A stretch of DNA of 64,000 bases from Christensenella sp. UBA7588. Lineage in GTDB: Bacteria > Bacillota > Clostridia > Christensenellales > CAG-917. The DNA lies in assembly GCA_002478945.1 (NCBI GenBank), contig DLKM01000001.1, positions 81,385-145,384 of the forward strand, in the 5' to 3' direction. Under the pieces are notes generated by a model. It had not been told where the DNA came from and made no database searches. It saw nothing but the letters and a program-made list of their open reading frames with translations. Made by a program: the position numbers and the translations under genes. This document shows, piece after piece, positions 8,593-42,867 of this stretch; the first letter of the stretch is position 1; each line of letters starts with the position of its first letter.

Positions 8593-8669
8593 GGAGGCAT
8601 AGCCCAGTTGGTTAGAGCGCTACGTTGACATCGTAGAGGTCATAAGTTCGAGTCTTATTGTCTCCACCA
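8593..8669 (+). tRNA. tRNA-Val (anticodon GAC), CCA encoded
   Basis: Cloverleaf folded by hand. Acceptor GGAGGCA/UGUCUCC, anticodon stem CUACG/CGUAG with loop UUGACAU, T arm AUAAG-UUCGAGU-CUUAU, 3' CCA. Confidence 0.9.
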
Positions 8670-8738: not shown

Positions 8739-8800
8739 GCGGTATGTCTACCGCCTCCGCCCCTTCGGTGCGGTTATGCCCCACGGTCATATTGCACGCT
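8739..8800 (+). repeat. Left copy of the 62-bp imperfect direct repeat flanking island 1
   Basis: gcggtatgtctaccgcctccgccccttcggtgcggttatgccccacggtcatattgcacgct, versus gcggtacatctacctactccgcccattcggtgcggctatgccccacggtcatattgcacgct at 23838-23899. About 6 mismatches by hand alignment. Confidence 0.8.
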
Positions 8801-8858: not shown

Positions 8859-9289
8859 CACGATAACCATCCGCACCTGTCGCACTTACAGGAGCGGATG
8901 GTTTATTTTTATCAAACATTTTATAGTTTATTGGCAAACACAAATCTTTGTTCCTTAATAAGCGATTATTCTATCGAATAAGTTATTCAAGAGTGTTTTG
9001 GTGATGCGCTTAATGCTTTTCGCAGGTATTTTTCTGCCTCATCTCGCGATAAATCAAGTGACAATTTGTTTTCTTCATTCGCTATTTCTTTTTCCATGTC
9101 GGCTTTATCGTTTTCAAGCTTAATCAATCTTTCTTTTATGCTTGTACCTTCTTGTGTCAAAACTACTGCACGTCCAACAGGCAAAAAGTTCTTATGTTTT
9201 TGTGTCTGTTATCATTTTTAATGTCCTATTTTTGAGACGTGTAAAATGATAAGATCTTGGTAATAAAAGGTAATCGCATCTTTTAGACT

Positions 9290-9313: not shown

Positions 9314-9343
9314 TTGACACCTGCTGTTAATTTATGTTAAAAT
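9314..9343 (+). promoter_or_regulatory. Sigma-A promoter of the island operon (extended -10)
   Basis: TTGACA (9314-9319), an 18-nt spacer ending in TGt, then TAAAAT (9338-9343). A GAGGTG RBS precedes the ATG at 9375. Confidence 0.6.
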
Positions 9344-9374
9344 GAGTTAAATCATTTTAATTCGAGGTGTATCG

Positions 9375-9566
9375 ATGACATTTGCCGAGAAAGTGAAATA
9401 TGTTAGAGGTGTTTTGCTCATAAGCCAAAAAGATCTTGCTAAAGAGTTGGGTGTGTCTAACGTAACAATCAATAGATGGGAAAACGGTGTTATCAACCCT
9501 TCATTTCTAACTGAGAAAAAGTTTGAAGCTTTTTGCAATGCTTGTGGAATTGAAATAAAGGAATAA
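9375..9566 (+). CDS. XRE-family helix-turn-helix transcriptional regulator
   Basis: 63 aa. ISQKDLAKELGVSNVTINRWENG is a classic HTH_3 signature. First gene of the operon. Confidence 0.85.
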   Translation: MTFAEKVKYVRGVLLISQKDLAKELGVSNVTINRWENGVINPSFLTEKKFEAFCNACGIEIKE

Positions 9567-9569
9567 CAT

Positions 9570-11285
9570 ATGTGGTGTGCAAATTGTAACAAAACTTCAT
9601 ATTCAGATGTCTGTGAAGTCTGTGGCGGCAAAACACAGCAAGACACGCCAATAGAATTGTATTGGTGTGATTCTTGTCGTGTTCCAATAATACGCGAGTT
9701 ATCAGACACTTCTCCGATGATTTGTCCGTCTTGCGGAAAGCCCATTCGTTACCTTGCAAAAGACTTAAGACCGGTTTTCCCTGAAGAACGGTTGTTACTT
9801 GAAGTTATAAAGGGCACTCCTCTTGCTTTTATAAATTCTTCGGTATGGGCATCTGGTAGTCGTTATTACATAGATGGGAAAATAGCAAATCTTTCTATTG
9901 AAACACTTAAAAAGATAGATGTAGAAAAAGTTGTAGAAACATTATCTCAGTATAAAGACAAAAATGATTATTCATTTTTCGATGAAAATATCAAAACTTT
10001 TATCGACTGCAATCGAGAAAGATTGGATTCAATAAAAAACGAAGCTACTTCGTTTGTTGTTGAGCAAGTGAAACGGTTTCCTAATCATAAATTGGTAATT
10101 TCTTTCTCAGGTGGAAAAGACTCAACCGTTGTGGCGGATATAGTAACAAGAGCATTGAGTGATCCGAGCATAGTTCATATATTTGGAGATACGACATTAG
10201 AATTTCCGACCACATATGAATATGTAAGCAGATTCCGCAAAAACAATCCGATGGCAATCGTAAAAACGGCTAAAAATAAAGAGCAAGACTTTTATTCCGT
10301 ATGCGATGAGATTGGCCCTCCGGCGAGAATGATGCGCTGGTGTTGCACTATGTTCAAAACCGGACCGATTACTAAAGTATTGAATTCTATGTTTAAGGAT
10401 TCAAAAATACTTACCTTTTATGGTATTCGTAAGCATGAGTCCGCCAGCCGTAGCAAATATGATAGAGTCGCTAACGGGGCAAATGTTAAAATACAAAAAC
10501 AAACCGTTGCTGCCCCTATTTTTTACTGGACCGATATTGAGGTGTGGCTTTATATGCTCGCTGAGGATGTCGATTTTAACGATGCCTATCGTTTAGGATA
10601 TGACCGCGTTGGTTGTTGGTGTTGCCCCAATAATACAATCCGTTCTCAGTTGTTGGCTAAAGTATATATGCCTGACAGGGCAAAAAAGTGGCGTGATTAT
10701 TTAATTGAATTCGCGAAACGTCTTGGTAAACCAGATCCTGAAGTGTACGTCGATGACGGTTTTTGGAAAGCAAGACAAGGTGGAAACGGATTGGCTGCAG
10801 CCGAAGACGTAAAAATCAGATATACCAACTGTACAGCGGAAGATCATGCAAAAATTTACAAACTAAACAAACCCATAACGGATGACTTTTACTATCTTTT
10901 TGTTCCATTTGGAAAAGTAAGCAAGGAGCTGGGACGAAAGCTTTTACATGAGGTTATGGTTTTGGATATTCGAACTAATGTACCAATTATGTCCATTCAA
11001 CCGTTTACTCAGAATGGATATGATTATGCTGTAAAGATTCGCACTATGAATGTCGCAGACCACGATGCGTTACAACGCATGGCGTCGTATCAAGTACGAA
11101 AATACAACGCTTGCAGACAGTGCCTGAAATGTGAATCTGTATGTCCTTATGGAGCAATTTCCATTTCCTTAGGGATTTATAAAATCGATGAAAATGTATG
11201 TAAACATTGTAAAAAATGCGTTACGCCAAAATATCTTGATGGCGGTTGCTTGATGGATAGGTTCTTAAAATCGAAAGAGGACTAA
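9570..11285 (+). CDS. PAPS-reductase-like PP-loop ATP pyrophosphatase (DndC/SspD-like) with N-terminal double zinc ribbon and C-terminal 4Fe-4S ferredoxin-type module
   Basis: PP-loop SFSGGKDSTVVADIV. Cys clusters RWCCTMF and GCWCCPNN. N-terminal CANC-x12-CEVC and CDSC-x18-CPSC. C-terminal CRQCLKCESVCP and CKHCKKC. Confidence 0.75.
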   Translation: MWCANCNKTSYSDVCEVCGGKTQQDTPIELYWCDSCRVPIIRELSDTSPMICPSCGKPIRYLAKDLRPVFPEERLLLEVIKGTPLAFINSSVWASGSRYYIDGKIANLSIETLKKIDVEKVVETLSQYKDKNDYSFFDENIKTFIDCNRERLDSIKNEATSFVVEQVKRFPNHKLVISFSGGKDSTVVADIVTRALSDPSIVHIFGDTTLEFPTTYEYVSRFRKNNPMAIVKTAKNKEQDFYSVCDEIGPPARMMRWCCTMFKTGPITKVLNSMFKDSKILTFYGIRKHESASRSKYDRVANGANVKIQKQTVAAPIFYWTDIEVWLYMLAEDVDFNDAYRLGYDRVGCWCCPNNTIRSQLLAKVYMPDRAKKWRDYLIEFAKRLGKPDPEVYVDDGFWKARQGGNGLAAAEDVKIRYTNCTAEDHAKIYKLNKPITDDFYYLFVPFGKVSKELGRKLLHEVMVLDIRTNVPIMSIQPFTQNGYDYAVKIRTMNVADHDALQRMASYQVRKYNACRQCLKCESVCPYGAISISLGIYKIDENVCKHCKKCVTPKYLDGGCLMDRFLKSKED

Positions 11286-11286
11286 T

Positions 11287-12174
11287 ATGAAGATAAGAGC
11301 TCATGAAACTTTTAGCATAAGAAAAGGCTGGATCCATAAGGGTGTTAAAAACATTCTTGTTTATCCGCGTTTATTTACTGATAAAAACATAAATCCATGT
11401 GATATTCTCGGAATAGGAACAAACATGGTAAAATCACTTAGATATTGGATGACCGCCGTCGGTATTATGGAAGAAGTATCCGAAGGTAATCAAAAAGTAC
11501 AAAAATTAACTCGTTTGGGTGAAATTATCGACGAGTATGATAAATATTACGAAGAAGACGGTACTAACTGGCTCCTTCACTATATGCTTGCAAAAAATGA
11601 GGAATTAGCAACAGCGTGGTATTGGTTCTTTAATATATTCAAAATCAATTCTTTCGACAAGCAGTTGTTTATAAGAGAACTATCTGAATTCTTAAATACA
11701 GAATACTATTATGATGGCTCGGAAAAAATGCTTGGCGATGAGTTTGACTGCATAATAAAAACTTATTGTTCAAAAGGCAAAGATGTATCTCCTGAAGATA
11801 TAAATGAATGTCCTTTAACAGACTTGCACTTGATTGAAGTATCTGACAATAAAGACTATAAAAAGCATACGCCAGATAGAGATGCGATACATCCGCTCAT
11901 AATTCTTGCAGTTATAAGTGAACAAGCCTATATTTCTAAGAAAAAAGAAGTTCTGATAACAGACTTGCTCAATAAAGAATGTAACGTTGGAAGAATATTT
12001 AACCTTGATAGAGCGACTTGTTTCTATTATCTTGAGCAACTACAAAAAGGTGGCTATCTCGAAATAGTAAGAACAGCAGGACTCGACGTTATTCAGTTGA
12101 AACAACAATATGATTTTTACGATATTATTGTTTCTTATTATCAAGCGATAAATGGGGTAAACATAAATGAGTAA
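11287..12174 (+). CDS. DUF4007-like protein (SspB-like candidate)
   Basis: 295 aa. The N-terminus HETFSIRKGWIHKG matches my memory of the DUF4007 signature (hETF..R.gWl.K). It lies between the PP-loop gene and the DUF499-like ATPase gene, as sspB does. The assignment is not verified by a search. Confidence 0.6.
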   Translation: MKIRAHETFSIRKGWIHKGVKNILVYPRLFTDKNINPCDILGIGTNMVKSLRYWMTAVGIMEEVSEGNQKVQKLTRLGEIIDEYDKYYEEDGTNWLLHYMLAKNEELATAWYWFFNIFKINSFDKQLFIRELSEFLNTEYYYDGSEKMLGDEFDCIIKTYCSKGKDVSPEDINECPLTDLHLIEVSDNKDYKKHTPDRDAIHPLIILAVISEQAYISKKKEVLITDLLNKECNVGRIFNLDRATCFYYLEQLQKGGYLEIVRTAGLDVIQLKQQYDFYDIIVSYYQAINGVNINE

Positions 12175-15100
12175 TTTGGGTAAAATCATATCCCCTATAG
12201 AGGGCTTTCAATACTCTGTTAATATCGCCTACGATATTTACGATGATAAGAAAATTAGAAGTTATATTCCTTCTAACAGTTCATTGCAAATTATCGAGGA
12301 TATTCTTGCGAGTACAGATAAGAAATCTACCGACCGCGCAAGGATTCTTACAGGTTCTTACGGAAAAGGTAAATCTCATTTAATTCTTTACATACTTGCT
12401 CTTTTGGCGGGCCGAGATAAGGCCTTGTTTTCTACTGCCATCGAAAAGGCAAAAATTGAAAACCCTGATTTGGCAAAGAATATTTGTGATTATTTAGATT
12501 CTAGGAAAAGACTTCTTCCTGTAATCGTTAATGCAAATAGCTTAGACATTAAGTCTACTTTGTTACAAAGCCTCAATTCAGCATTGCAACAAGCGAATCT
12601 TGCCAATATTATGCCATCAACATTCTTTGATGCTGCAGTTTCTAAAGTATTGGCGTGGAAAAATGATTTTCCGGAAACGTATAAATCATTTGAAAATAAA
12701 ATCGGACAAAGCGGTGAATCTTTTGTTTTAGCTCTTAAAGATTATGATCAAAGCCGGTATGAACTATTTGTTAGGATATATCCATCTCTCACATCCGGCA
12801 GCGAATTTAATCCTCTTGCCGGTTCAGATGTAATTAGTGTCTATGAAAGTGTTATTGACGAACTGAAACCTCTCGGATATAACGGCATTTTTGTTGTTTA
12901 TGATGAATTTGGTAAATTCCTTGAAGGAAGTGTAGATAAATCTTCCGCAATGGATATTAAACTGATTCAAGACTTTGCCGAAAAATGTAATCGCAGCGGG
13001 TTAAAGCAATTACACGTAATGCTTATTTCTCATAAAAGCATAGAGAACTACATTGGCAAACTGGATAAGAATAAAGTTGACGCTTGGAAAGCCGTATCAA
13101 ACAGATTCAAGTCTATTTCAATTAACAACGATGAATCTGAAATTTATGATATGGTCGCAACGGTTCTTAACAGAGATAAAAAACTCTTTGAAAAATACGT
13201 TGAACAGCATTCCGAGCAATTTGCAGCATTGAAAAAGGTAATAGAAAGAGATCATTCTTTTACGGCATTAAATGACGAAAATGTAGAAGATTTTGCTCTC
13301 AGATGTTATCCATTGCACCCGTATACACTTTTGTTGCTACCTAAAATCTCCGAACTCGTAGCACAAAACGAAAGAACAATTTTTACATTCCTTTCTTCTA
13401 CGGAACGTTATTCTGTGCCGTATTTTTTGCGTACAGAAAATTCGAGTTTTCCGATAATCGAACCTGATTACATCTATGATTACTTTGAAAAATTGTTAAA
13501 GGGTGAGCCTTATGGTAGTAATGTAAAAAAGCAATGGCAAATTACCACTGCGGCTCTATCAAAGTTAAAAGAATACGACAATCCTTTAGCTGAAAAAATT
13601 GTAAAAACAATCGCATTGATCTATTGTGTAAACGATTTTGAAATTATTCCGCCAAGTTGGGATATTATTTGCGAAATCTATTCCGTAAATTATCGCTGGG
13701 GCGATATAGAGGCTGCAAAAGAAACGCTTAAAAAGGCGCATCTTCTTATTGAATTGCTCTATAAACCCTATGTGCGTATTACGGAAGGTAGCGGCCATGA
13801 CGTTTTGGGGCTTATCCAACAAGAAGCTTATAAAATAGAGAACTCTACGAAAGCAAAAGATGTTTTCAATGATGTTTGCGAAATCAAATATCTATATCCG
13901 GTGCAATACAATGATGAAAATGAAGTCATTCGTTATTTTGACTTTCGTTTTATTGATTGCTTCGAATTGCAAAACATTCAAACTGAAGGCTTTGTTTTAG
14001 ATACAAAAGCCGATGGCGTTGTCTTTGCTGTTTTAGTTAGAACACCATCCGAATTAGAGAGTGCTATATCCCTTATCTCAAGCAATCATAATAAAAGAGC
14101 TGTATTTATATTGCCCAAAGATTGCTACGATAGCGATAGTATTGCTATAAACTACCAAGCAATACTTAGCTTAAAAAAACAGTATGAAGGTAAAGAGCTA
14201 GAACTTGTGGAAGAATTGAACTATATTTTGGAAGATAGACAGAATGTAGTAAACTCTTTTATTGATAACTCTTATGTAAGATTTGATAAAAATCTTTCCA
14301 ACGTTTATTTCTATGGTGTTAAGCAAGAAGTATACCGAAAAGCCCAGCTTTCTCAGTTGTTGTCAGGCATAATGTCGGTAATTTACTATCGTACTCCAAA
14401 AATTGTAAATGATTTAATAAACAAAAACCAAATTAGTGCCACAATTAAAAATGCAAGAAATAAGATATTGACGGCAATTCTTATGGGAAACTTCAAGAAA
14501 GATATGGGTCTTATTGGAAATGGACCTGAGCTTAATATTCTTAGAAGCGCATTAGTGATTCCCGGCGTATTTATCAATAGTGATGATGAGCCACATTTGG
14601 AAATCGAATGTGACGACAAGAAAATAAGACAGATTCTTGCTGAGATAAGAACTCATATTTTTCAATCATCGTTATCACGTCATAATAATCTCGGTGAATT
14701 GTATGATGTTCTAACTCTACCCGACTATGGATACGGTCTTAAAATGGGAGTTATTCCCATTTATATAGCGGTTGTTGTTTCTCAATACAAAGACCATATA
14801 ACTCTTTCCAAAAAAGGAAAAGAGTTGCCTTTATCCGCAAGCGTTTTGTGCGACATAGAGTATCAGCCGAATGACTATTCGCTTATTCTCGAACAATGGG
14901 ACGAACAAAAAGATATATATATCGCTAATCTGGAAGATATATTCTCTCAATTTGTTAATTCTTCGGACAAGATTAACGGCTCTTTCGTATACATTGTTAA
15001 GGCAATGCGCAGGTGGTATTTGCAATTAACAAAGTATGAGGTAGTCACTAAGAAAGTTTGCAATATAGATGGAACCATATCCGATATGAACACCAGTGTA

Positions 15101-15775
15101 ATTAAGTTTAGAAACGCCTTAAGCAGTCCTGAACTTAACTCTCACGAATTCCTGTTTGAACAGTTGTTTAAGATTTTTGGAAATAATGGCTATGAAAGGC
15201 TTATTTCTTCTTTACGCCGTGCATTCCAAGACATAAACACAACGTATAGGAATATCCATCTTAAACTTGCCAAGGAAATAAAAAATCTCTTTGGCGCAAA
15301 AGCAAGCGACAGTTTATCTTCGGTTATCGCTAATTTTTACGATGACCTTAAAGAAACGACAAAAGAACACTTGTTTAGCGGCAAAGCAAGCATGTTCTTG
15401 GATATTGCAAAGCATCCCAATAATGACGAATTTAAGTTGATTGAAACAATAGGCAGAGCATTGTTTAACCTTCGCATGAGTGATTTTACTGACGAAATTA
15501 TGTCTTGCTATATGGCAGAATTAGATAATGTCGTCAAAGAAATAAAGAAGTACGATGAAAAAATTGAAGATAATGGTGCGACTCAAGGCTATAAGATTAT
15601 GTATACTGACGAGAACGGATCGGAAGTTACAAAACAGTTTGATGCAACCGAATATACGGAAAAAGGACAATTTTTGTATAATGATATTACGTCTACACTT
15701 GAAGAATTTGGCGGTGCAATATCGAGTGATGAAAAAAGGCAAATTTTGTTTAGAATATTGAAAGAGTTAATATGA
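12167..15775 (+). CDS. Large P-loop ATPase, BrxC/PglY/SspC (DUF499)-like
   Basis: 1202 aa. Walker A LTGSYGKGKSHL and Walker B-like GIFVVYDEFGKF. Its size and N-terminal ATPase with a long helical C-terminus resemble the BrxC/SspC class. Overlaps the upstream gene by 8 nt and the downstream gene by 4 nt. Confidence 0.65.
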   Translation: MSNLGKIISPIEGFQYSVNIAYDIYDDKKIRSYIPSNSSLQIIEDILASTDKKSTDRARILTGSYGKGKSHLILYILALLAGRDKALFSTAIEKAKIENPDLAKNICDYLDSRKRLLPVIVNANSLDIKSTLLQSLNSALQQANLANIMPSTFFDAAVSKVLAWKNDFPETYKSFENKIGQSGESFVLALKDYDQSRYELFVRIYPSLTSGSEFNPLAGSDVISVYESVIDELKPLGYNGIFVVYDEFGKFLEGSVDKSSAMDIKLIQDFAEKCNRSGLKQLHVMLISHKSIENYIGKLDKNKVDAWKAVSNRFKSISINNDESEIYDMVATVLNRDKKLFEKYVEQHSEQFAALKKVIERDHSFTALNDENVEDFALRCYPLHPYTLLLLPKISELVAQNERTIFTFLSSTERYSVPYFLRTENSSFPIIEPDYIYDYFEKLLKGEPYGSNVKKQWQITTAALSKLKEYDNPLAEKIVKTIALIYCVNDFEIIPPSWDIICEIYSVNYRWGDIEAAKETLKKAHLLIELLYKPYVRITEGSGHDVLGLIQQEAYKIENSTKAKDVFNDVCEIKYLYPVQYNDENEVIRYFDFRFIDCFELQNIQTEGFVLDTKADGVVFAVLVRTPSELESAISLISSNHNKRAVFILPKDCYDSDSIAINYQAILSLKKQYEGKELELVEELNYILEDRQNVVNSFIDNSYVRFDKNLSNVYFYGVKQEVYRKAQLSQLLSGIMSVIYYRTPKIVNDLINKNQISATIKNARNKILTAILMGNFKKDMGLIGNGPELNILRSALVIPGVFINSDDEPHLEIECDDKKIRQILAEIRTHIFQSSLSRHNNLGELYDVLTLPDYGYGLKMGVIPIYIAVVVSQYKDHITLSKKGKELPLSASVLCDIEYQPNDYSLILEQWDEQKDIYIANLEDIFSQFVNSSDKINGSFVYIVKAMRRWYLQLTKYEVVTKKVCNIDGTISDMNTSVIKFRNALSSPELNSHEFLFEQLFKIFGNNGYERLISSLRRAFQDINTTYRNIHLKLAKEIKNLFGAKASDSLSSVIANFYDDLKETTKEHLFSGKASMFLDIAKHPNNDEFKLIETIGRALFNLRMSDFTDEIMSCYMAELDNVVKEIKKYDEKIEDNGATQGYKIMYTDENGSEVTKQFDATEYTEKGQFLYNDITSTLEEFGGAISSDEKRQILFRILKELI

Positions 15776-16920
15776 TGATCGGATATTTTGATAATGCGGC
15801 AACTACATATACAAAGCCCGATGGCATGTACGAATACATGGCTGATTTTATGGTGTCTAACGGGGCAAATGTGGGACGAGGTATATATAATTCTGCAGTA
15901 ACAAGCAGCAAAATTGTGACGGATACCCGCGAAAACCTATTATCTTTAGTTAATGCTCCCGAAAATAAAACAGTCGTGTTTACGCCATCGGCAACGATTG
16001 CTCTTAATACTATTATTTTTGGTATTGGGTTGACTGACGGAGACGTTGTTTATATTTCACATTTTGAGCATAACGCCGTTTTAAGACCGTTGTATGCGTT
16101 GCAAAAGCATATCAAAATAGAAATCAAATATATTCCGATGCAAAAAACTGATAGATACTCGTTTGATTTAGAACAGTTCAAAACAAATTTGGAGACAGAC
16201 AAACCGAAACTTGTTATTGCCTCACAAGTAAGTAATGTTTTAGGTATTGAAGCTCCCGTTGTAGAAATAGGAAAACTTGCAAAACTTAACAACTCAATTA
16301 TGATAGTAGATGCAGCGCAAGCATGTGGCGTGTCGGATTGTGATCTCCATTTTGTGGATTTTTACGTTTTTGCAGGACATAAAACACTGCTCGGTCCAAC
16401 TGGCATTGGTGGATTTATCTGCAATAAGAACACAAAATTAAAGCCATTCATATTTGGTGGCACTGGAATTGATTCTGCTAATCACGATATGCCTGATACT
16501 CTCCCAGAACGCTTTGAGGCCGGAACATTAAACCTATTGTCTATCGTGGGGTTGAATTATTCCGTTAAATGGTTGATAAATAACCGCGACTTTGCAACAA
16601 GAAAAGAAAATGAAAACTATGAACGATTATCTTCGGTGTTAAATACATTTTCATTTCTTGAAATTGAAACGCCTGTTGATAAATCAAAAAGTATCATCTC
16701 GTGCAAAGTAAACGGATTCACGTCGGATGAGTTTGGTCGGATTCTTGCAGAGCGGGGCATAGCTGTAAGAACAGGGTTGCACTGTGCTCCAATGGCACAC
16801 GAATATATCGGCTCTTTCCCTGAAGGTCTTGTTCGTTTTAGTATATCGTGCCTAACAAAAGATAACGATTTTGACAGGCTTACCGAAGTATTGTCGTCAT
16901 TAACAGAAGAACTAATATGA
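15772..16920 (+). CDS. Class V aminotransferase / cysteine desulfurase (DndA/SspA-like, SufS-type active site)
   Basis: FDNAATT start, PLP-lysine block FAGHKTLLGPTGIGG, catalytic Cys block VRTGLHCAPMAHEY. Confidence 0.85.
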   Translation: MMIGYFDNAATTYTKPDGMYEYMADFMVSNGANVGRGIYNSAVTSSKIVTDTRENLLSLVNAPENKTVVFTPSATIALNTIIFGIGLTDGDVVYISHFEHNAVLRPLYALQKHIKIEIKYIPMQKTDRYSFDLEQFKTNLETDKPKLVIASQVSNVLGIEAPVVEIGKLAKLNNSIMIVDAAQACGVSDCDLHFVDFYVFAGHKTLLGPTGIGGFICNKNTKLKPFIFGGTGIDSANHDMPDTLPERFEAGTLNLLSIVGLNYSVKWLINNRDFATRKENENYERLSSVLNTFSFLEIETPVDKSKSIISCKVNGFTSDEFGRILAERGIAVRTGLHCAPMAHEYIGSFPEGLVRFSISCLTKDNDFDRLTEVLSSLTEELI

Positions 16921-16932
16921 TGAGGAGGATAT

Positions 16933-19071
16933 ATGGCACTTAGCGATTTACACATTGCCAAGGAATACAGAAACTTAAAATGTGATGTGATAAATGACTT
17001 CTACGTTCCCATTTTAAGCAATGCTGTTATGTATAAAAGGGCTGTCGGATTCTTTAATTCTGCTGCTTTATATGAAATGGCAATAGGTTTAAGACACCTT
17101 GTCGAAAAACAAGGAAAAATGGAGCTTATTGTATCGCCAAGATTGACCGAAGAAGATATTCAGTCAATCCATTTGGGATATAAAACTCGCGAAGAAGTGA
17201 TAGAAAGAGCACTACTCCGCGACTTTTATGAGCCCAAAAATAAAACCGAATTCCGCAAACTAAACTTGCTTGCAAATCTCATAGCTGAAGGCGTTTTAGA
17301 TATCAAAGTCGCATTCAAAATCAATGCTAATTCAGCAGGCATATTCCATGAAAAAATAGGCATTGTTATTGACTCTGAAGGAAATAAAGTTGCATTTACT
17401 GGCTCAATGAATGAAACGTACTCTGGTTTATTGCAGAATTATGAGTCAATAGATGTATTTTGCAGTTGGCGCGATGAGGACTATGATAGAGTCAACATAA
17501 AAGAGAACGCCTTCGACAATTTATGGGAGAATTTGGATACTGCGATGGAAGTTATTCCTTTCCCTAAAGTCGCAATTGAAAGATTAAACTCATATAAGGT
17601 GGAAAAAACAGATATTATACTTGATGCTGCATCGCGAGATGAAGTTGGGGATAAAGTCGAATTCTTCCATATTCCATCTTCGATTCATTTGCATAAATAT
17701 CAGGATGATGCTATTGAAACTTGGCTTAGTAAAGGTGGAAGAGGTATTTTTGATATGGCAACCGGCACAGGGAAAACTTATACTGCATTGGGTGCTTTGT
17801 CAAAACTATCTGCTAAACTACAAAATCACTTAGCCGTTCTAATAATCTGCCCCTATCAACATTTGGTTGAGCAATGGGTTGACGATATAAAAGTTTTCGG
17901 AGTAAAACCTTTAATATGTTACTCAAGATATAATTGGAAGAAACAATTAAAGGATACTATTGAAGATTATAAAATGGGAATAATCAATAACTTTTGTGTT
18001 ATTACGACAAATTCTACATTTGTAACACCTTCAATGCAAAACGAAATTGCTAAGATGGATGGTGATTTTTGTTTAGTTGTCGATGAGGCCCATAATTTTG
18101 GAGCGAAAAAGCAATTAGCTTGTATGAGCGAAAAGTTCAATTATAGATTGGCTTTGTCCGCGACAATAAATAGGCATCATGACGAGTATGGAACACAACG
18201 TTTATTTGATTATTTTGGCGAAAAATGCATTGAATACACTCTTAAACAAGCCATAAATGAGAACAAATTGACTCCATACTACTATTATCCTGTCTTGGTT
18301 CCATTTACAGAGGATGAGTTGCACGAATACTGTGAAATAACAGATAAAGTCGCAAACATTTTAAAGAAAATACCTCATGGAGACGATTTGCCTCAATCTG
18401 CCGAGCGATTACTAATTAAACGGGCACGTATTATTGCAGGCGCAAAAGAAAAAGTAAATGCTCTAAATGAAGTTATACAAAAGTATAAAGACAAAAATCA
18501 TTTGTTAGTCTATTGTGGAGCTACCAAAGTTGAAAGCGAGTATTTATCTAATGACGATATAGATTCAGCTGAACAACGACAAATTGATGAGGTAACGTCA
18601 CTATTAGGAAACACGTTAAAAATGAAAGTCACGCAATTTACTTCTGCTGAAGATAGCAAACGTCGAGAACTTATCAAAAACGAATTTTCAAAAGGTGAAA
18701 TACAAGCTTTAGTTGCAATAAAATGTTTAGACGAGGGCATGAATATTCCTGGAATAGAAACGGCTTTTATCCTTGCAAGTAGTACCAACCCCAAAGAATA
18801 TATTCAAAGGCGTGGACGTGTTTTGAGGAAGGCACAAGGTAAAACTTACGCAACTATTTATGACTTTGTAACCCTTCCCCGCCCGTTAAATGAATACTCG
18901 TACCCAAGTTCAGTGCAAGCAGAGCTTTCGTTGGTAAAACGTGAAGTTGAAAGGATGAGAGATTTCCAAGAATTATCAGAGAATCCCTCAGATGTTACCG
19001 AGGTAATACGTCTGTTGACGGAAAAATACAATTTATACTTGATAGGAGATGAATATGAGCGAGTTGAATGA
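16933..19071 (+). CDS. PLD (HKD) nuclease domain fused to an SF2 DEAH-box (Res-type) helicase
   Basis: HKD-like FHEKIGIVIDSEGNKVAFTGSMN. Helicase motif I MATGTGKTYTA, motif II VVDEAHNFG, motif III LALSAT, motif VI QRRGRVLRK. Confidence 0.8.
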   Translation: MALSDLHIAKEYRNLKCDVINDFYVPILSNAVMYKRAVGFFNSAALYEMAIGLRHLVEKQGKMELIVSPRLTEEDIQSIHLGYKTREEVIERALLRDFYEPKNKTEFRKLNLLANLIAEGVLDIKVAFKINANSAGIFHEKIGIVIDSEGNKVAFTGSMNETYSGLLQNYESIDVFCSWRDEDYDRVNIKENAFDNLWENLDTAMEVIPFPKVAIERLNSYKVEKTDIILDAASRDEVGDKVEFFHIPSSIHLHKYQDDAIETWLSKGGRGIFDMATGTGKTYTALGALSKLSAKLQNHLAVLIICPYQHLVEQWVDDIKVFGVKPLICYSRYNWKKQLKDTIEDYKMGIINNFCVITTNSTFVTPSMQNEIAKMDGDFCLVVDEAHNFGAKKQLACMSEKFNYRLALSATINRHHDEYGTQRLFDYFGEKCIEYTLKQAINENKLTPYYYYPVLVPFTEDELHEYCEITDKVANILKKIPHGDDLPQSAERLLIKRARIIAGAKEKVNALNEVIQKYKDKNHLLVYCGATKVESEYLSNDDIDSAEQRQIDEVTSLLGNTLKMKVTQFTSAEDSKRRELIKNEFSKGEIQALVAIKCLDEGMNIPGIETAFILASSTNPKEYIQRRGRVLRKAQGKTYATIYDFVTLPRPLNEYSYPSSVQAELSLVKREVERMRDFQELSENPSDVTEVIRLLTEKYNLYLIGDEYERVE

Positions 19072-19231
19072 GAAAAAAGAATTAGATCAAGCTTTATTGG
19101 GGAAACTGGAGTTCAAAATCTTTAAAATTGAACATGAGAATCACAAGACAAGAAAGCTAACTGATAACGAGATGATCCAACGCATCAGAAAAATCATTGA
19201 TGAGTACGTTAGAATGGAGGATGAGCAATGA
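19055..19231 (+). CDS. Small charged protein (58 aa), function unknown, translationally coupled on both sides
   Basis: AGGAG (19044-19048) lies 6 nt before ATG 19055. The ORF overlaps the helicase stop (19071) and the next gene by 4 nt. Sequence MSELNEKKELDQALLGKLEFKIFKIEHENHKTRKLTDNEMIQRIRKIIDEYVRMEDEQ looks helical. Confidence 0.5.
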   Translation: MSELNEKKELDQALLGKLEFKIFKIEHENHKTRKLTDNEMIQRIRKIIDEYVRMEDEQ

Positions 19232-21243
19232 TAATAAAGTCAATTACACTGCAAAATTTTCGTCAATATAAAAATGAAAACACTATCAAGTTTTCGACTG
19301 ATCCCAATAAAAATGTTACTCTTGTATTGGGCGTAAATACCAGCGGAAAAACAACTATCGTTCAGGCATTTAATTGGTGCTTGTATGAAACAACCAATTT
19401 TAAGTCTCGTGATATGTTGCTTAATTCAGAAGTAGCATCTTCTCTTCCTGAAAACGGATATGCTATAGTTCGTGTGCAAATTGTTCTTGAACACGAGGAC
19501 AAGGAATACACTATTGTTCGCGCTCAGCGCTTTTCAAGAGTACCACAGAGTAATAGGGTTAGAGGCGAGAGGACTTCTCTATCTGTTTCTTTCAAAGAGT
19601 CTAATGGCAACAGTTTTCCCATTATGGCATACGAATGCCAGAATACCATCAATAAGATTCTCCCCGCGGGATTGTCGGATTATTTCTTTTTTGATGGAGA
19701 AAGAATACAAGATATTAACAATAAAAAAGACGTTGTGTCGGCGGTTCGTGGCTTGATGGGACTAGATGTCGCAAAGGTTGCAGTAGATCATTTGGACCCA
19801 AATAAATCTTCTTCAGTTATTAGAAAATTACAATCTGAATTGCGCGGAAATAGCGATTCTGAAACAAAGAAATATCAAGAGGATTTAGAACGATATATTT
19901 CCAAGCTTGAAGATTGTAAAAACAGATTATTACAGATTGAGTCGGAGATTGCTTATGCAAAGTGTGAAAGAGAAAGACTTTCTGAGATCCTTAGAGGAAC
20001 CGAAAATGTGAGAACGTTACAAAATCAACGCGACAAACTAACCATAAGCAAAAGCGGCGCTGAATATAGAATAAATGAGTCACAAGAGCGTTTTTTGTCT
20101 GATTTTAATCGCGACTATTATTCTTTCTTCATACAACCGTTATTGGGGAAAGCGCAAAAAGTTTTGGCAGCTTCAAACAAACAAATAGATGGTATACCCG
20201 AGATGAATGCAAAGGCAATAGATTATATTCTAAAACGTGGAAGATGCATTTGCGGTTGTGATTTAACTAAGAATCAAGGCGCAATTGAGAATATAGAGTA
20301 TGAAAAAAGTCTTTTGCCACCTCAACATATTGGCACAATGGTGCGTTCTTTTAAGGAAACCTGTAATTTGCTTGCTTCTCAGGAGGCAAGCGCAGCACTT
20401 AATGAAACTATTAGTTCAGATTATATTAGCATTCGAAGAGACCAAAGAAGACTTGGTGAAATTGTCGACGAACTAAAATCTATAAGTGCGCAAATAATGG
20501 AATTGGGCTCTGTTAACACATCACAAATAGAAGCTGACTATAATGCTAACGAGCATACTCTTGAGAATAAGATTAAACAGTATGGCAATACCGAATCAGA
20601 CATCGAAGCCTTGAAAAAGAAAATTGAAGATACAAATAAACTTATTGATAGCCTTTCTGCGCAATGCGAACACAATGCTCTATTAAGAAGAGAAATCGAA
20701 TATGCGACGGCTGTTTATAAGTGGTTTAAAGATACTTATGACCAACAAGAAGTTGAAGTAAAACAAGATTTACTGGAAAGTGTGAATAAGATCTTTAAAA
20801 AAATGTACCATGGAACAAGACAAATAACGATTGACGACAATTATCATATACAATTGATAACTAGTGTAGGCGATGAAAAAATAAATACAGACGAGTCAAA
20901 AGGATTAGAGGCAGTAAAGAATTTTTCTTTCATCACCGGTCTTGTAGAGTTGGCTCGTAATAGGGCCCGTTTAGTTGAAAAGTCACCATTCCCAAACGAG
21001 CCAGATATTCATACCACAGAACCATATCCCATAGTTATGGATGCACCGTTTTCAAATGTTGACGAAATACATATAAACAACATTTCTAGTATATTGCCTG
21101 AAATCGCGGAACAAGTTATACTTATAGTAATGAAGAAAGACTGGGCTTATGCGGAAAAAACTATGGGTTACAGAGTTGGTGCAAGTTACTATATTGAAAA
21201 AGTAAATAACTCCGATACTTATTCGGCAATAAGGAGGGTGTAA
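19228..21243 (+). CDS. DndD-like SMC/ABC-type ATPase with coiled coil and Cys-x-Cys hook
   Basis: N-terminus MIIKSITLQNFRQYKNENTIKF...VLGVNTSGKTTIVQAF (Walker A). Long coiled-coil middle containing RGRCICGCDL. C-terminal Walker B PIVMDAPFSNVD. Confidence 0.75.
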   Translation: MIIKSITLQNFRQYKNENTIKFSTDPNKNVTLVLGVNTSGKTTIVQAFNWCLYETTNFKSRDMLLNSEVASSLPENGYAIVRVQIVLEHEDKEYTIVRAQRFSRVPQSNRVRGERTSLSVSFKESNGNSFPIMAYECQNTINKILPAGLSDYFFFDGERIQDINNKKDVVSAVRGLMGLDVAKVAVDHLDPNKSSSVIRKLQSELRGNSDSETKKYQEDLERYISKLEDCKNRLLQIESEIAYAKCERERLSEILRGTENVRTLQNQRDKLTISKSGAEYRINESQERFLSDFNRDYYSFFIQPLLGKAQKVLAASNKQIDGIPEMNAKAIDYILKRGRCICGCDLTKNQGAIENIEYEKSLLPPQHIGTMVRSFKETCNLLASQEASAALNETISSDYISIRRDQRRLGEIVDELKSISAQIMELGSVNTSQIEADYNANEHTLENKIKQYGNTESDIEALKKKIEDTNKLIDSLSAQCEHNALLRREIEYATAVYKWFKDTYDQQEVEVKQDLLESVNKIFKKMYHGTRQITIDDNYHIQLITSVGDEKINTDESKGLEAVKNFSFITGLVELARNRARLVEKSPFPNEPDIHTTEPYPIVMDAPFSNVDEIHINNISSILPEIAEQVILIVMKKDWAYAEKTMGYRVGASYYIEKVNNSDTYSAIRRV

Positions 21244-21245
21244 CA

Positions 21246-21758
21246 ATGTTTGATGGCGAGATTAAATTATCAGGAAAGCATGCTTCATATTTAAAGTTTT
21301 TATCTGCAAAAACGCTGCAACTAAATAAATCAGCTCCATGCGCTGCTGTTCTTAGACGGCATGTAGATGTTTATATTGCTGGAGTTGCTATCGGATTGGC
21401 AAAAAAATTAAAAACCCAAACGGACAATTCAATAGCTGATACAGCAACTATCTTTGCTGATGCAGTTATTAGCGAACAGGAAAAATTAAAAGTACTATAT
21501 AGGATAATGCAACTTATTAATGATTCGTCATTATCTGCCGAGGATAGAATAGATTTGGCTTTTCGATACGATACTGATGCTGAATATGTAAAAAAGGGAA
21601 TGGAACTGTTTAACAGCTATGCCCGAGGCGGTATTCAATGGTTATATGATGAAATAACTGAAAATGCCACAACCAAAGAGGATTACATTGAAAATATAGC
21701 CGAAATGATTGATAATTATTATCAAGATTACAATGATTCGTTTGCCAATCAAATGTAA
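21246..21758 (+). CDS. Hypothetical 170-aa protein (position and a weak N-terminal pattern suggest a DndE-like partner of the SMC ATPase)
   Basis: Starts 3 nt after the DndD-like gene. IKLSGKHASYLKFLSAKTLQLNKSAPCAAVLRR loosely recalls the DndE N-terminal pattern (..LS.k....L..LK..TG...N...R). It is longer than the DndE proteins I remember, and the call is unverified. Confidence 0.3.
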   Translation: MFDGEIKLSGKHASYLKFLSAKTLQLNKSAPCAAVLRRHVDVYIAGVAIGLAKKLKTQTDNSIADTATIFADAVISEQEKLKVLYRIMQLINDSSLSAEDRIDLAFRYDTDAEYVKKGMELFNSYARGGIQWLYDEITENATTKEDYIENIAEMIDNYYQDYNDSFANQM

Positions 21759-21771
21759 CTAAGAGGTAATT

Positions 21772-22308
21772 ATGTTAGATACTTCGATGATGGATGTGAT
21801 TTCAGGATTTAATGCAAGAAAAATACTACTTGAATTACCATCACATCTTTGGCACAAAATAGATGAAGATGTTTTGGATATAGTCAAAAAAGCAGAATGG
21901 AAATCATTTAAATTTTTTGATGGGGTTCAACGCAGTTCAGAAATAAAAAGAATAAATAACAAAAGCGGGGGAATATATCTTTTCTATATTTCCCCAGAAA
22001 TAATTCCTCAAAATCACCGAATAGTTATGTATATAGGAAGAGCGCGCTATACAAATAATCAAAATCTACGAAAAAGGATAACGGAGTATTATGGCTACGT
22101 TGCGCCTAACTATGATAGGCCTAAAATCACCACCATGTTTCAACAATGGAGCGAAGATGTGTACTGTAGTTATTTAGAGCTTGACTGTTCAAACGAAACA
22201 ATAGATTTGATTGAAAAAGAACTAATTAATAAACTCTTACCATATTGCAATGATGCAATCCCCGACAAGAAAATACAAAAAGCGGTTAAAGCCGCTGGAC
22301 TACAATAG
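21772..22308 (+). CDS. GIY-YIG domain nuclease
   Basis: GGIYLFY ... VMYIGRARYTNNQNLRKRITEY ... IEKELINKLLPYCN gives the GIY, YIG, Arg, Glu and Asn positions of the GIY-YIG fold. Confidence 0.65.
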   Translation: MLDTSMMDVISGFNARKILLELPSHLWHKIDEDVLDIVKKAEWKSFKFFDGVQRSSEIKRINNKSGGIYLFYISPEIIPQNHRIVMYIGRARYTNNQNLRKRITEYYGYVAPNYDRPKITTMFQQWSEDVYCSYLELDCSNETIDLIEKELINKLLPYCNDAIPDKKIQKAVKAAGLQ

Positions 22309-22323
22309 TTTGGAGATATTAAA

Positions 22324-23598
22324 ATGAATAAAATTGCATTTAGAGAAAACTCAGGCAACTGGATATATTATTTAACATGGCTGACTTATAAAGAAGTAAG
22401 TCTATATGTTAAAAAAGTTGATAAAGAATTACATCAATCAAACTCACTAAATAATATGATTCAAAGAAGTTTGACCGATAACGTAAAACGCATAGCGGCA
22501 TATATAGAAAAACAGCCAGAGCATTTCTTTAACGCCTTAGTATTAGCAGTATATGACGGAGATCCACAATGGCGTGAAATTGAACTAGAGTATGGTGATG
22601 AAGAAAAGTATAATTTAGGCATTTTGGAACTAAGCGGAAAAGAAAGCATATTCCCCGTTGATGGACAACATCGAGTTGAAGGAATAAAGGAAGTCTTACA
22701 AAAAAATCAGGATGGAAAGTTTGATAACGAAACTATTCCCGTAATATTAATTGGTCATAAAAATACGGAACAAGGTATGCAGCGAACTCGTAGGTTGTTT
22801 AGCACATTAAATAGATATGCCAAACCGGTAACGCTAAATGATATTATTGCTTTGGATGAAGATGATATTATTGCCATAGCAACGAGGCACCTCATTGAAA
22901 CCAATGAACTTTTCCATGAAGAAAGGTTGAACAATCACAAACAAAAAGCAATCCCAGATAAGGATAAAGTTGCATTTACAAATATCATTTCATTATACGA
23001 ATGCAATACAGAATTGTTAAAATACTTTTTGAAAGACAAACAAGTATTTTTTGACGGAAAAGAATTAAAAGGAAAGAGAAAAATTGATGAATACTGTCGC
23101 GTGAGACCAGATGAAGAAGAGATAAACACATTCTTATGTTTTGTCGATAAATATTGGTCAGATTTTTCGAAAAATCTTGATGTAATTAAACAGTATTTGG
23201 CAACAAAAGTTAATGAACAACCAGCATTAACGTATCGGAACAAAAATGGTGGGAATCTGTTGTTTAGACCTATAGGTCAGAAGCCGTTTGTTTTGTGTGC
23301 ATTAGATTTGTACGATAAAAATCATGATATGGAAGCAACTATGCAAACAATGAACATGCTTAATCTTGAAATGGATTCTGAATTATGGAAATTCATAGTT
23401 TGGAATCCTATAAACAAAAAAATGATTACATCATCAAATGGAACGCTAATAGAATATTTATTGAAGTATTTTACAGGTGCTGAATTATCGGATAAAGAAC
23501 TTTTGAAAATGAAAGAAGATTTCAAGAGCATGAAAAGTAATGAGGCCTTGACAGATGATGAAATATGTGAAATATTAAGTCATTATAAAATTTATTGA
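22324..23598 (+). CDS. DGQHR-domain protein (DndB-like, ParB-fold)
   Basis: Literal motif FPVDGQHRVEGIKEVL. The earlier FFNALVLAVYDGDP block and the 424-aa size fit the DndB/DGQHR family. Confidence 0.75.
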   Translation: MNKIAFRENSGNWIYYLTWLTYKEVSLYVKKVDKELHQSNSLNNMIQRSLTDNVKRIAAYIEKQPEHFFNALVLAVYDGDPQWREIELEYGDEEKYNLGILELSGKESIFPVDGQHRVEGIKEVLQKNQDGKFDNETIPVILIGHKNTEQGMQRTRRLFSTLNRYAKPVTLNDIIALDEDDIIAIATRHLIETNELFHEERLNNHKQKAIPDKDKVAFTNIISLYECNTELLKYFLKDKQVFFDGKELKGKRKIDEYCRVRPDEEEINTFLCFVDKYWSDFSKNLDVIKQYLATKVNEQPALTYRNKNGGNLLFRPIGQKPFVLCALDLYDKNHDMEATMQTMNMLNLEMDSELWKFIVWNPINKKMITSSNGTLIEYLLKYFTGAELSDKELLKMKEDFKSMKSNEALTDDEICEILSHYKIY

Positions 23599-23608: not shown

Positions 23609-23645
23609 AAGCCGAGAGAAATTTATAAATTGTTCTCTCGGCTTT
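23609..23645 (+). terminator. Hairpin ending the island operon
   Basis: AAGCCGAGAGAA (23609-23620) pairs with TTCTCTCGGCTT (23633-23644), 10 nt after the last stop codon. The T-run is short. Confidence 0.5.
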
Positions 23646-23837: not shown

Positions 23838-23899
23838 GCGGTACATCTACCTACTCCGCCCATTCGGTGCGGCTATGCCCCACGGTCATATTGCACGCT
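23838..23899 (+). repeat. Right copy of the 62-bp imperfect direct repeat flanking island 1
   Basis: See 8739-8800. The AT-rich sequence ends here and core-like composition resumes. Confidence 0.8.
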
Positions 23900-24072: not shown

Positions 24073-25491
24073 ATGTTTGAAAAACTTGATAAAATCAAGC
24101 CTGCGCTCAAAAAACTCATCGCCGAACTCGACAAGACGTACGCCTATGCGTCCGTGCTGGCGGTTGAGGACGAAAATCGCGGTTGGAGAATAAGCCGCAC
24201 GGGCAAAAGGATAAACAACAAGGGTCTGGGCGGTGGCTCGGGCTACGTCGTGAGAGTATTTGACGAAACGGGTTGTGCGGAATATTCCTTCAACGAGTTT
24301 TCCGAGGACAAAATTCCCGAAATCGTAAAAACGATGAGCGAGCGCATAGCGCAAGAGGCAAAAAATATCCCGAGCGGAATAACGCCGCTTCCCACCCCTA
24401 TTCCGTGCGACGAACCTGCGGTTCTCAAAAAGGTCGGCGGATACAAAATCAATCCCAAAGAACTCGGCGACGAAGCGATATTGGCACGTCTCGAACAAAT
24501 ACGCAACAAAGCGTTGACGGTGGACGGCGTACTCGACGCAATCGCGACGATTTCGTATAGAGCGTTCAGAAAACTGTTTATATCCAAAAATCGAGACCTC
24601 GACCAAACCGTAATGTACACCAACGGCGCGATTATGGCAATGTCTCAACGCGGAGAGGAAGTTTTGGACGCATACAAAGGCTTCTCCACCCTCGGCGGAG
24701 CGGAGCTTCTTGACGAGATGGACAACTATGCTTTGACGGTAGCCGCCGAAGCGGTTGAGCTTTTGAAAAGCGAACCGATGATTCCCGGAGAATACGACTG
24801 CATTTGCGACCCCGATACCACGGGTATGATAGTCCACGAAGCGTTCGGACACGGCGTTGAAATGGATATGTTCGTAAAAGACAGAGCGCTTGCATCGAAT
24901 TTCATTGACGAGCGAGTCGCAAGCGACCTCGTCACTATGCACGACGGCAATGCGGTTGACGATACCGCAACTTGCTGGTTCGACGACGAAGGCACGTTCA
25001 CGGGAGATACGGTTGTCATTTCAAACGGTATTTTGAAACGCGGTATGTGCGACGCGCTTTCCGCAAGTCGTCTCGGCGTAAAGCCCACGGGCAACGGCAG
25101 ACGCGAAAGTTACGAGCGCAAAGTTTATACCCGTATGACCAACACTTATTTCGAGGGCGCAAAAGAAGGCGTAACTCCCGAAGATATGATTGCTTCGATA
25201 AAATACGGCTTCTTGCTCGAATCTCCCTCAAGCGGTATGGAGGACCCCAAAAACTGGGGTATTCAATGTATGGTCACAAAAGCGAGAGAGATAAAAGACG
25301 GCAAACTTACCGGCAGGATTTTCTCCCCCATCGTGCTTACGGGTTACGTTCCCGATTTGCTCAAATCGGTAAGTATGATGAGTTCTTCCCTCGTCACTTG
25401 CGGCAGCGGTTTTTGCGGAAAAGGCTACAAGGAATGGGTTAAAGTATCCGACGGCGGTCCTTATATGAAGGCTCGCATCAGACTTGGTTGA
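24073..25491 (+). CDS. tldD: TldD-family metalloprotease
   Basis: 472 aa with HEAFGHGVEMD zinc motif and C-terminal GFCGKG...GGPY typical of TldD. Confidence 0.85.
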   Translation: MFEKLDKIKPALKKLIAELDKTYAYASVLAVEDENRGWRISRTGKRINNKGLGGGSGYVVRVFDETGCAEYSFNEFSEDKIPEIVKTMSERIAQEAKNIPSGITPLPTPIPCDEPAVLKKVGGYKINPKELGDEAILARLEQIRNKALTVDGVLDAIATISYRAFRKLFISKNRDLDQTVMYTNGAIMAMSQRGEEVLDAYKGFSTLGGAELLDEMDNYALTVAAEAVELLKSEPMIPGEYDCICDPDTTGMIVHEAFGHGVEMDMFVKDRALASNFIDERVASDLVTMHDGNAVDDTATCWFDDEGTFTGDTVVISNGILKRGMCDALSASRLGVKPTGNGRRESYERKVYTRMTNTYFEGAKEGVTPEDMIASIKYGFLLESPSSGMEDPKNWGIQCMVTKAREIKDGKLTGRIFSPIVLTGYVPDLLKSVSMMSSSLVTCGSGFCGKGYKEWVKVSDGGPYMKARIRLG

Positions 25492-25502
25492 GAGGTGTTA
25501 TT

Positions 25503-40463: not shown

Positions 40464-40473
40464 AGGAGTCGAT

Positions 40474-42859: not shown

Positions 42860-42867
42860 AAAACAAC

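Follow-up and report, generated by a model that had tools for sequence, protein, structure and literature searches.

A candidate phosphorothioate (PT) defence operon was found in the genome of Christensenella sp. UBA7588 (assembly GCA_002478945.1), within positions 81,385 to 145,384 of contig DLKM01000001.1. This stretch of 64,000 nucleotides (nt) is called the window here, and all coordinates are window coordinates unless a related locus is named. Eleven tightly packed open reading frames (ORFs) run along its + strand from 9375 to 23598, just as an original prediction, made from the DNA letters and their translations, had described them. The operon consists of three modules: an Ssp module in the order D-B-C-A, a PbeABCD-type module, and a pair of genes coding for a GIY-YIG protein and a DGQHR protein (Table 1). 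The modules are all of known kinds, recognised by PADLOC profiles, and the locus belongs to a conserved composite that is widespread, Ssp-Pbe (+GIY-DGQHR). To a specialist the biology of the locus is not unexpected in kind, while the combination of modules is unusual.

Gene Layout and Expression Signals

The junctions between the genes range from an overlap of 23 nt (17 nt if the second ATG of the small gene is used) to a gap of 15 nt, the range that had been given before. On identical metagenome contigs independent gene callers give the same 11 genes. Since nine of the 11 products match profiles, strongly in all cases except GIY-YIG, and the gene order is found again in dozens of unrelated contigs, a chance arrangement is excluded. 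Every motif that the original prediction quoted from the sequence was found again, and its view of the region as a single operon-like PT defence locus is supported.

One promoter-like element and one hairpin had been proposed to frame the operon. The hairpin lies after the last gene. The promoter-like site is also present and is the top sigma-70-like site in the regional scan, but it counts as weak evidence because such matches are frequent in AT-rich DNA (75 found here against 59 expected). The first gene codes for a helix-turn-helix (HTH) protein of 63 amino acids (aa), likely a controller of expression that is accessory and stands outside the core; a small HTH ORF lies 5′ of SspD in only some of the related loci (L004, L007, L030, L032; L numbers are our labels for loci).

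Table 1. Predicted genes of the operon, followed by its expression signals and the landmarks of the island (window coordinates).
Feature	Length	Position	Strand	Basis
Small XRE-type HTH protein	63 aa	9375..9566	+	Pfam HTH_3 6e-11
SspD, long form	571 aa	9570..11285	+	PF01507 108 bits; SGGKDS at 180
SspB (DUF4007), DNA-recognition/nicking subunit	295 aa	11287..12174	+	PF13182 257.4 bits
SspC, BrxC/PglY-like P-loop ATPase	1202 aa	12167..15775	+	PADLOC SspC 8.6e-123
SspA-type pyridoxal phosphate (PLP) cysteine desulfurase (sulfur donor)	382 aa	15772..16920	+	TIGR01977 384.3 bits
PbeA, HKD (phospholipase D, PLD, family) nuclease and superfamily 2 (SF2) helicase fusion	712 aa	16933..19071	+	PADLOC PbeA 3.4e-245
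PbeB-like small charged protein	60 aa	19049..19231	+	PbeB position; alternative start at 19055 gives 58 aa
PbeC, CxC-type ABC ATPase	671 aa	19228..21243	+	PADLOC PbeC 4.9e-117, full length
PbeD-like protein (putative DndE cognate)	170 aa	21246..21758	+	position, size, homologue annotation
Putative GIY-YIG (URI) family nuclease	178 aa	21772..22308	+	motif residues; marginal profile scores
DGQHR-domain (ParB-superfamily, DndB-family) protein	424 aa	22324..23598	+	TIGR03187 95.8 bits
Promoter-like site TTGACA-18-TAAAAT with extended TG		9314..9343	+	consensus match only, 11/12
Terminator-like hairpin after the last gene		23609..23644	+	12-bp stem, -18.6 kcal/mol, z = -3.55, then UUUAGUU
tRNA-Val (GAC), landmark directly 5′ of the island		8593..8669	+	ARAGORN; Rfam 65 bits
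62-nt direct repeat, left copy	62 nt	8739..8800		repeat family D1
62-nt direct repeat, right copy, island boundary	62 nt	23838..23899		repeat family D1

The Ssp Module

By homology the SspA/B/C/D set is complete, as originally predicted, and has the order SspD-SspB-SspC-SspA. In SspD a PAPS-reductase/PP-loop ATP pyrophosphatase domain is preceded by N-terminal zinc ribbons of the CxxC type and followed by a 4Fe-4S ferredoxin motif at the C-terminus (CRQCLKCESVCP at 515). PADLOC ranks the N-terminal part of BrxP first for this protein (8.7e-84, profile positions 24-511 of 779), before a partial SspD match (9.6e-17) and a DndC match (6.4e-13). This result agrees with the description of BrxP as a fusion of SspD and SspB (PMC12914056) and with the ferredoxin-bearing form known in a subset of SspD (PMC12839542).

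The SspB protein matches PF13182 over its full length (cut-off 27) and the PADLOC SspB model at 2.5e-56. In SspC, residues 214-1128 fit the PADLOC SspC profile far better than BrxC (3.1e-44), and the protein has Walker A GSYGKGKS at 63 and Walker B VVYDEF, with DEF at 246; its precomputed annotation is PF19557 BrxC-PglY_N, and a direct Pfam/NCBIfam scan gave no match. The desulfurase exceeds the TIGR01977 cut-off of 377, scores 245 bits with PF00266, and is placed by PADLOC about equally with SspA (1.4e-38) and DndA (1.3e-36). Its HK motif with the PLP lysine is at 203 and TGLHC with the catalytic cysteine at 334.

The PbeABCD Module

The four genes that follow had been interpreted in part as Dnd-type components, forming with Ssp a hybrid modification core around one desulfurase/PP-loop pair. 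This interpretation is not upheld, as the "Dnd-type" parts belong to a PbeABCD module. In published systems PbeA is an HKD nuclease with SF2 helicase, PbeB a small fast-evolving protein, PbeC a CxC ATPase and PbeD a DndE cognate (PMC10853773).

The expected PLD-helicase is present as PbeA: the PADLOC model is matched in full length (residues 3-688 on profile positions 1-681), and TIGR04095, "DNA phosphorothioation system restriction enzyme", gives 531.6 bits, slightly under its cut-off of 600. Domains ResIII, Helicase_C and PLDc_2 were matched, and the motifs are HEK...GSMN at 157, GTGKT at 278, DEAH at 384 and QRRGRVLR at 625.

The DndD-like ATPase is also there, although not as the DndD counterpart it had been taken for. 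This 671-aa protein fits the PADLOC model of PbeC much better than that of DndD (2.8e-39), and with the DndD equivalog TIGR03185 it reaches 108 bits, below the cut-off of 245.85. It matches AAA_23/SMC_N and has Walker A GVNTSGKT at 35, Walker B IVMD at 602 and, between the two halves, CICGC at 340. This CICGC zinc hook is the defining mark of the CxC ABC-ATPase clade.

The 60-aa and 170-aa genes lie in exactly the PbeB and PbeD positions, and on this ground we assign them as PbeB-like and PbeD-like. Related loci show the same picture: in 14 of 15, PbeA and PbeC are separated by an ORF of 49-70 aa (39-82% identical among the nearer ones), and the PbeD position is filled in all of them by a gene of 164-183 aa. 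Most homologues of the 170-aa protein carry the precomputed Pfam annotation PF27807 DNA_S_mod_dnd_assoc_4. The original prediction had suspected a DndE in the operon; the 170-aa protein is a putative DndE cognate, but one of the Pbe module and not a part of a Dnd core.

The GIY-YIG/DGQHR Pair

Both proteins of the pair had been expected and both are present. In the first, GIY is found at 67 and YIG at 87, and eight residues (G66, G67, Y69, Y87, G89, R102, E148 and N160) are invariant across 21 homologues. Its structural model has the order strand-strand-helix-helix-strand-helix, which we take to be GIY-YIG-like. The family is small, with 29 clusters in a word-indexed search. A search with the second protein gave 3093 proteins at E <= 0.001, many of them about 420 aa long and about 50% identical. 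The protein itself has DGQHR at 113 and passes the generic DGQHR model TIGR03187 (cut-off 58.85). Its description as a DndB counterpart is not supported by the DndB equivalog TIGR03233, where 54.9 bits stand against a cut-off of 328.

A scan of metagenomes with the GIY alignment gave 80 loci, which were then classified. DGQHR lies directly 3′ of GIY in 66 of the 68 metagenome loci with room for it, and the other two carry DGQHR too. All sampled contexts of the pair are PT loci. Where the flanks are long (18 metagenome loci, flanked by 6 kb or more upstream and 7 kb or more downstream), SspD/B/C were found in 17, Ssp together with Pbe in 13, and Ssp without Pbe in four. The pair accompanies Ssp without Pbe in L077, L090, L101 and L115; L090 has the order sspA-B-C-D-GIY-DGQHR, with the pair in the usual position of SspE. 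In L028, L050 and L053 it lies upstream of BrxP-BrxC-PglZ, that is, of bacteriophage exclusion (BREX) type 4 genes. The pair follows modification genes (Ssp or BrxP-BrxC) more closely than it follows Pbe.

The GIY-containing loci show at least seven gene orders, some of them divergent. L023 has the order of the window. In other clades the pair occupies the gap between SspC and SspA (L030, L032, L085), the gap between SspD and PbeA (L026, L080, L082), or the place after PbeD. For example, the order is SspB-SspC-SspD-GIY-DGQHR-PbeA-small-PbeC-PbeD in L026 and HTH-SspD-SspB-SspC-GIY-DGQHR-SspA-PbeA-small-PbeC-PbeD-sigma70-like in L030 and L032, and in L031 the pair comes after the sigma70-like gene.

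This sigma-70-type gene codes for a protein of 360-384 aa with sigma-70 region 2 and 4 domains. It lies directly 3′ of PbeD in one Ssp-Pbe clade (L030 17626-18708, L031 8297-9406, L032 17326-18480; also L073, L096, L106, L112, L114), in some loci between PbeD and the pair, and is absent from the window. In the BREX type 4 loci a protein of about 510 aa is always encoded 5′ of the pair (L028 270-1802; L046, L049, L050, L053, L054, L063). Some genomes also show signs of decay in the pair: in Desulfallas sp. Bu1-1 an IS110 transposase lies between GIY and DGQHR (L030 8490-9728), in L009 (12565-13383) GIY is lost and DGQHR is 5′-truncated, and in L026 (10528-11599) DGQHR is split into ORFs of 166 and 194 aa.

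Conservation of the Ssp-Pbe Core

A PbeA scan of a genome collection gave 19 loci with 43-96% identity, and these were compared with the 11 window proteins by tblastn. As far as the contigs reach, the core SspD-SspB-SspC-SspA-PbeA-small ORF-PbeC-PbeD is kept in all 19, and 15 are complete from SspD to PbeC. The lowest protein identities across these loci are 25-45%. Where tblastn missed the small ORF and the PbeD-like gene, they are present nonetheless. The loci come from Bacteroidales, Clostridia, Christensenellaceae, Defluviitaleaceae, Desulfosporosinus, Treponema, Bacilli and Mollicutes, and the relatives of the locus are found in gut and rumen-type metagenomes and metagenome-assembled genomes (MAGs) of Bacteroidales and Clostridia.

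The slot 3′ of PbeD is filled differently from locus to locus. GIY-DGQHR is found there in the window, L007 and L017, and the truncated DGQHR in L009; L004-L006 have Ssp-Pbe without the pair, and in L004 no co-directional gene follows PbeD. Other genes were seen in this slot. In L006 (14849-16184) and L008 (14801-16179) PbeD is followed by an ORF of 247-257 aa, membrane-protein-like by eye, and by one of about 195 aa with a FIDTETGG motif that looks, again by eye, like that of a DEDD exonuclease. Single proteins of 1019-1488 aa follow PbeD in L011 (15673-19779), L014 (11121-14180) and L018 (14410-20753), and in L018 a second BrxP-like PAPS reductase follows as well. Such variable genes may be alternative accessory effectors.

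The closest relative, L004, is a 96%-identical copy in a Bacteroidales MAG, and the next relatives are Clostridia MAGs with PbeA identities of 79% and 64%. The flank common to the window and L004 is only the 50 nt before the HTH gene (9325-9374 against L004 2393-2442). This short shared flank, together with the Clostridia origin of the next relatives, suggests that the operon and its promoter region were recently transferred across phyla.

Relation to Known Systems

The SspABCD-SspE and SspABCD-SspFGH systems of Vibrio, E. coli and Streptomyces have the same four modification components, all of which are present here with intact motifs, and restriction genes directly downstream in one operon. 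In contrast to their order A-B-C-D, the order here is D-B-C-A; SspD is long and BrxP-like, with zinc ribbons and a 4Fe-4S ferredoxin tail; and the restriction side consists of PbeABCD and the GIY-YIG/DGQHR pair. No SspE, SspF, SspG or SspH model was among the PADLOC matches listed for 10 proteins of the operon (for PbeC, among the best 25 of 95 families), and SspE gave no match at E <= 10 in the four downstream proteins. An identity of the downstream genes with SspFGH or SspE was rejected for this lack of a profile match.

The haloarchaeal DndCDEA-PbeABCD systems, which are the CxC ABC-ATPase systems of Krishnan, Rakesh and Aravind, have the same Pbe cassette in the same order with similar protein sizes: in the type Pbe system PbeB has 66 aa and PbeD 152 aa (PMC6459918), against 60 and 170 aa for the PbeB-like and PbeD-like proteins here. 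In both, the cassette lies directly downstream of PT-modification genes. However, the partner here is Ssp-type (SspB/SspC) and not Dnd-type (DndD/DndE), and the DndC, DndD and DndE equivalogs were not reached (TIGR03183, 41.9 bits against 290.4; TIGR03185, as given above). CxC/Pbe genes have been reported alone, next to cytosine methylases or next to Dnd genes (PMC6459918, PMC10853773).

BREX type 4 (BrxP-BrxC-PglZ-BrxL), for which PT formation has now been demonstrated, comes close on the modification side, as SspD best matches the N-terminal two-thirds of BrxP and SspC is a homologue of BrxC; the PAPS reductase and DUF4007 are fused there and separate genes here. PglZ and BrxL gave no match among the operon proteins or the ten large ORFs scanned outside the operon, and this identity was rejected for that reason.

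The DGQHR protein shares the ParB/DGQHR superfamily with DndB and with SspE, a DUF262 ParB-like NTPase joined to a DUF1524 nuclease. It always comes with a nuclease-fold partner and lies near Ssp genes, and in L090 it stands in the SspE position. The differences are that two genes are involved here, that the putative nuclease is GIY-YIG and not DUF1524, that no SspE model was matched, and that the DndB equivalog was not reached.

PADLOC has a catch-all class, "PT_other", for mixed PT genes (PMC9252829). The original prediction could not match the gene content to a described subtype. Each module proved to be already named; for the coupling of Ssp with Pbe, or for the GIY-DGQHR pair, no description was found in the literature examined, and neither was the 11-gene order as a named subtype; a mention in Krishnan 2020 (NAR gkaa726) or Xiong 2020 (Nat Microbiol) is possible.

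Proposed Function and Alternatives

Judged from its genes, the operon is probably a composite PT restriction-modification-type defence system on a 15.1-kb island by tRNA-Val. In the mechanism that we propose, SspA would draw sulfur from cysteine, and SspD, SspB and SspC would, by homology, put PT into the host DNA. The product is most likely of the single-strand CpsC type known from characterised Ssp systems; gut isolates carrying sspBCD also have CpsC (PMC12914056). PbeABCD would read the Ssp mark, distinguish self from foreign DNA in this way and act on DNA without the mark: PbeC, as a CxC ABC ATPase, and the DndE-like PbeD may scan or loop DNA, the HKD nuclease/SF2 helicase PbeA would attack unmarked invader DNA, and the small PbeB may be an essential subunit or a regulator. 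The GIY-YIG and DGQHR/ParB-like proteins may form a second PT-linked unit, either a two-gene analogue of SspE or a DndB-like brake. The upstream HTH protein probably controls expression.

The proposal builds on what the sequences show: gene content, intact catalytic motifs, the order kept across phyla and the interleaving of the modules. The modules are shuffled together yet travel together, which argues for functional coupling and not for chance adjacency; unrelated neighbouring systems would not interleave so. There are experimental precedents in the literature. In haloarchaea, defence by PbeABCD requires PT, with pbeB, pbeC and pbeD essential and pbeA partly so (PMC6459918). One Ssp module can also serve two restriction modules with additive effect, namely SspE and SspFGH (PMC8092258).

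Several points weigh against the proposal. Pbe has been assayed solely with Dnd-type double-strand PT, and Rakesh et al. question that Pbe is a PT-dependent restriction system and propose that it may act on its own or as a suicide system (PMC10853773). The closest relative, L004, and most PbeA-clade loci are without the GIY-DGQHR pair, which must then be dispensable for the Ssp-Pbe core. The 60-aa protein had no match in Pfam, NCBIfam or PADLOC profiles (including PbeB), and the 170-aa protein no direct match in Pfam, NCBIfam, PADLOC (including PbeD) or a PDB sequence profile. The two top PDB fold matches of the AlphaFold model of the latter (pLDDT, the model confidence, 89) are E. coli DndE, 4lrv and 5wtu, with probability 0.80-0.89 and template modelling (TM) score up to 0.65, although their E of 0.2-0.5 is not significant. 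For the GIY-YIG protein the Pfam GIY-YIG match (E 0.0049) is below the cut-off, and the best PDB match of the family profile, the UvrC GIY-YIG domain 1yd6, is marginal at E 0.016. Because Foldseek of its model against PDB gave nothing meaningful (best E 0.1, unrelated folds), the GIY-YIG call rests on sequence motifs and marginal scores.

What is the role of the pair? With modest confidence we favour a second PT-linked effector, and a brake of the DndB kind is the main alternative. Under this alternative, to which we give a real though smaller chance, DGQHR would hold down PT density, as a DndB-like repressor or an ATP-dependent brake, and GIY-YIG would process nicks or repair intermediates of the modification. 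The DGQHR protein does match DndB models (PF14072, 95.8 bits, 3.6e-27; PADLOC DndB 3.3e-16) and not SspE, negative regulation of PT by DndB has been documented (PMC4507180, as summarised in PMC10853773), and the pair tracks Ssp or BrxP-BrxC more faithfully than Pbe. However, an HTH regulator is present in the window already, and in L090 the pair stands in the SspE slot. Moreover, DGQHR is invariably paired with a nuclease-fold protein whose catalytic residues Y, R, E and N are kept, which fits the ParB-plus-nuclease effector theme of SspE/GmrSD.

The effector reading of the pair can be carried further, though only tentatively and with rather more doubt than hope. GIY-DGQHR might be a PT-sensing, split analogue of SspE common to Ssp, Ssp-Pbe and BREX type 4 loci; Ssp single-strand PT might be the missing partner of a part of the "solitary" PbeABCD systems; and one mark might arm two restriction machines in one operon. 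In the original survey no modification partner had been assigned to about 30% of the PbeAC pairs (165 of 553; PMC6459918).

For the Pbe module it is improbable that PbeC-PbeD are target-selection or modification machinery, or that Pbe is an abortive-infection or suicide arm, in which PbeB restrains the HKD nuclease until a phage factor removes PbeB, and not a classical restriction system. Just such roles have been put forward by Rakesh et al. (PMC10853773) for the CxC-DndE pairs and the small disordered protein, degradation of viral DNA was not seen by Xiong et al. (PMC6459918), and PbeC and PbeD have their sister families in DndD and DndE, which act in modification. Against modification machinery it speaks that an ATPase (SspC) and a DNA-recognition subunit (SspB) are already part of Ssp and are enough for PT in characterised systems, and that haloarchaeal dndCDEA modified DNA without pbe genes (PMC6459918).

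About as improbable is that two or three independent systems stand side by side (an orphan Ssp, a PT-free CxC/Pbe and a separate GIY-DGQHR unit): defence genes do cluster in general, CxC/Pbe occurs without adjacent modification genes in many taxa (the 165 of 553 PbeAC in PMC6459918; also PMC10853773), and loci exist with Ssp and the pair without Pbe (L077, L090, L101, L115) or with Ssp-Pbe without the pair (L004-L006), but the genes here overlap or lie 1-15 nt apart between one promoter-like site and one terminator, Ssp genes were found down to 25-45% identity and across phyla in every PbeA-clade locus (n = 19) with enough upstream sequence, and interleaved orders such as SspC-GIY-DGQHR-SspA-PbeA are hard to explain in this way.

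A cross-phylum Ssp-Pbe operon offers a direct test of whether Pbe reads PT, and whether it reads single-strand marks. With the GIY-YIG/DGQHR pair there is also a candidate for an additional effector or regulator that Ssp and BREX type 4 systems share. In gut isolates with sspBCD the PT itself has been measured, while the restriction partners there are largely uncharted. In practice, loci of this kind stand in the way of phage therapy and of the genetic manipulation of gut anaerobes.

Island Setting and Neighbouring Genes

The 14-kb operon was horizontally acquired and is carried on a 15.1-kb island beside tRNA-Val. The island has 35% GC (32-37% inside against 47-49% on either side), and the GC drop falls between the two copies of the 62-nt direct repeat, which are 90% identical and 15099 nt apart. 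These repeats are likely the att-type boundary of the island. The final 21 nt of the tRNA-Val (8649-8669) are copied again at 8838-8858 (repeat family D6), so that the repeats are interleaved: tRNA 3′ end, 62-nt repeat, copy of the tRNA 3′ end, island, 62-nt repeat. This layout is compatible with an element that bore a tRNA-Val remnant beforehand and integrated at the 62-nt site. No integrase gene was found inside the island. The empty site was not recovered, as a relative of the flanking tldD sits in a different synteny.

To the left the island borders on a housekeeping gene for an HI0933-like flavoprotein and to the right on the housekeeping tldD/pmbA pair, which begins at 24073 (PmbA_TldD matches 24073-26783). 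Other flanking genes in the window code for an ECF transporter and an LRR_5/Flg_new surface protein. At the left island edge an ORF of 65 aa (8987-9184, - strand) is Lys/Glu-rich and coiled-coil-like by eye; Pfam gave no hit for it, and it could be what is left of a gene.

A second low-GC island (32-35% GC) occupies positions 40000-46378 of the window and abuts tRNA-Ser (46287-46378, - strand). It contains, all on the - strand, a gene for an ApeA-like HEPN protein (41117-42511) that matches the PADLOC candidate PDC-S58 at 1e-41, one for an OLD/ATPase-Toprim_I-B-type ATPase (43261-44790, 9e-45) and a further ORF of 333 aa (45169-46170). This second island looks like a separate defence islet.

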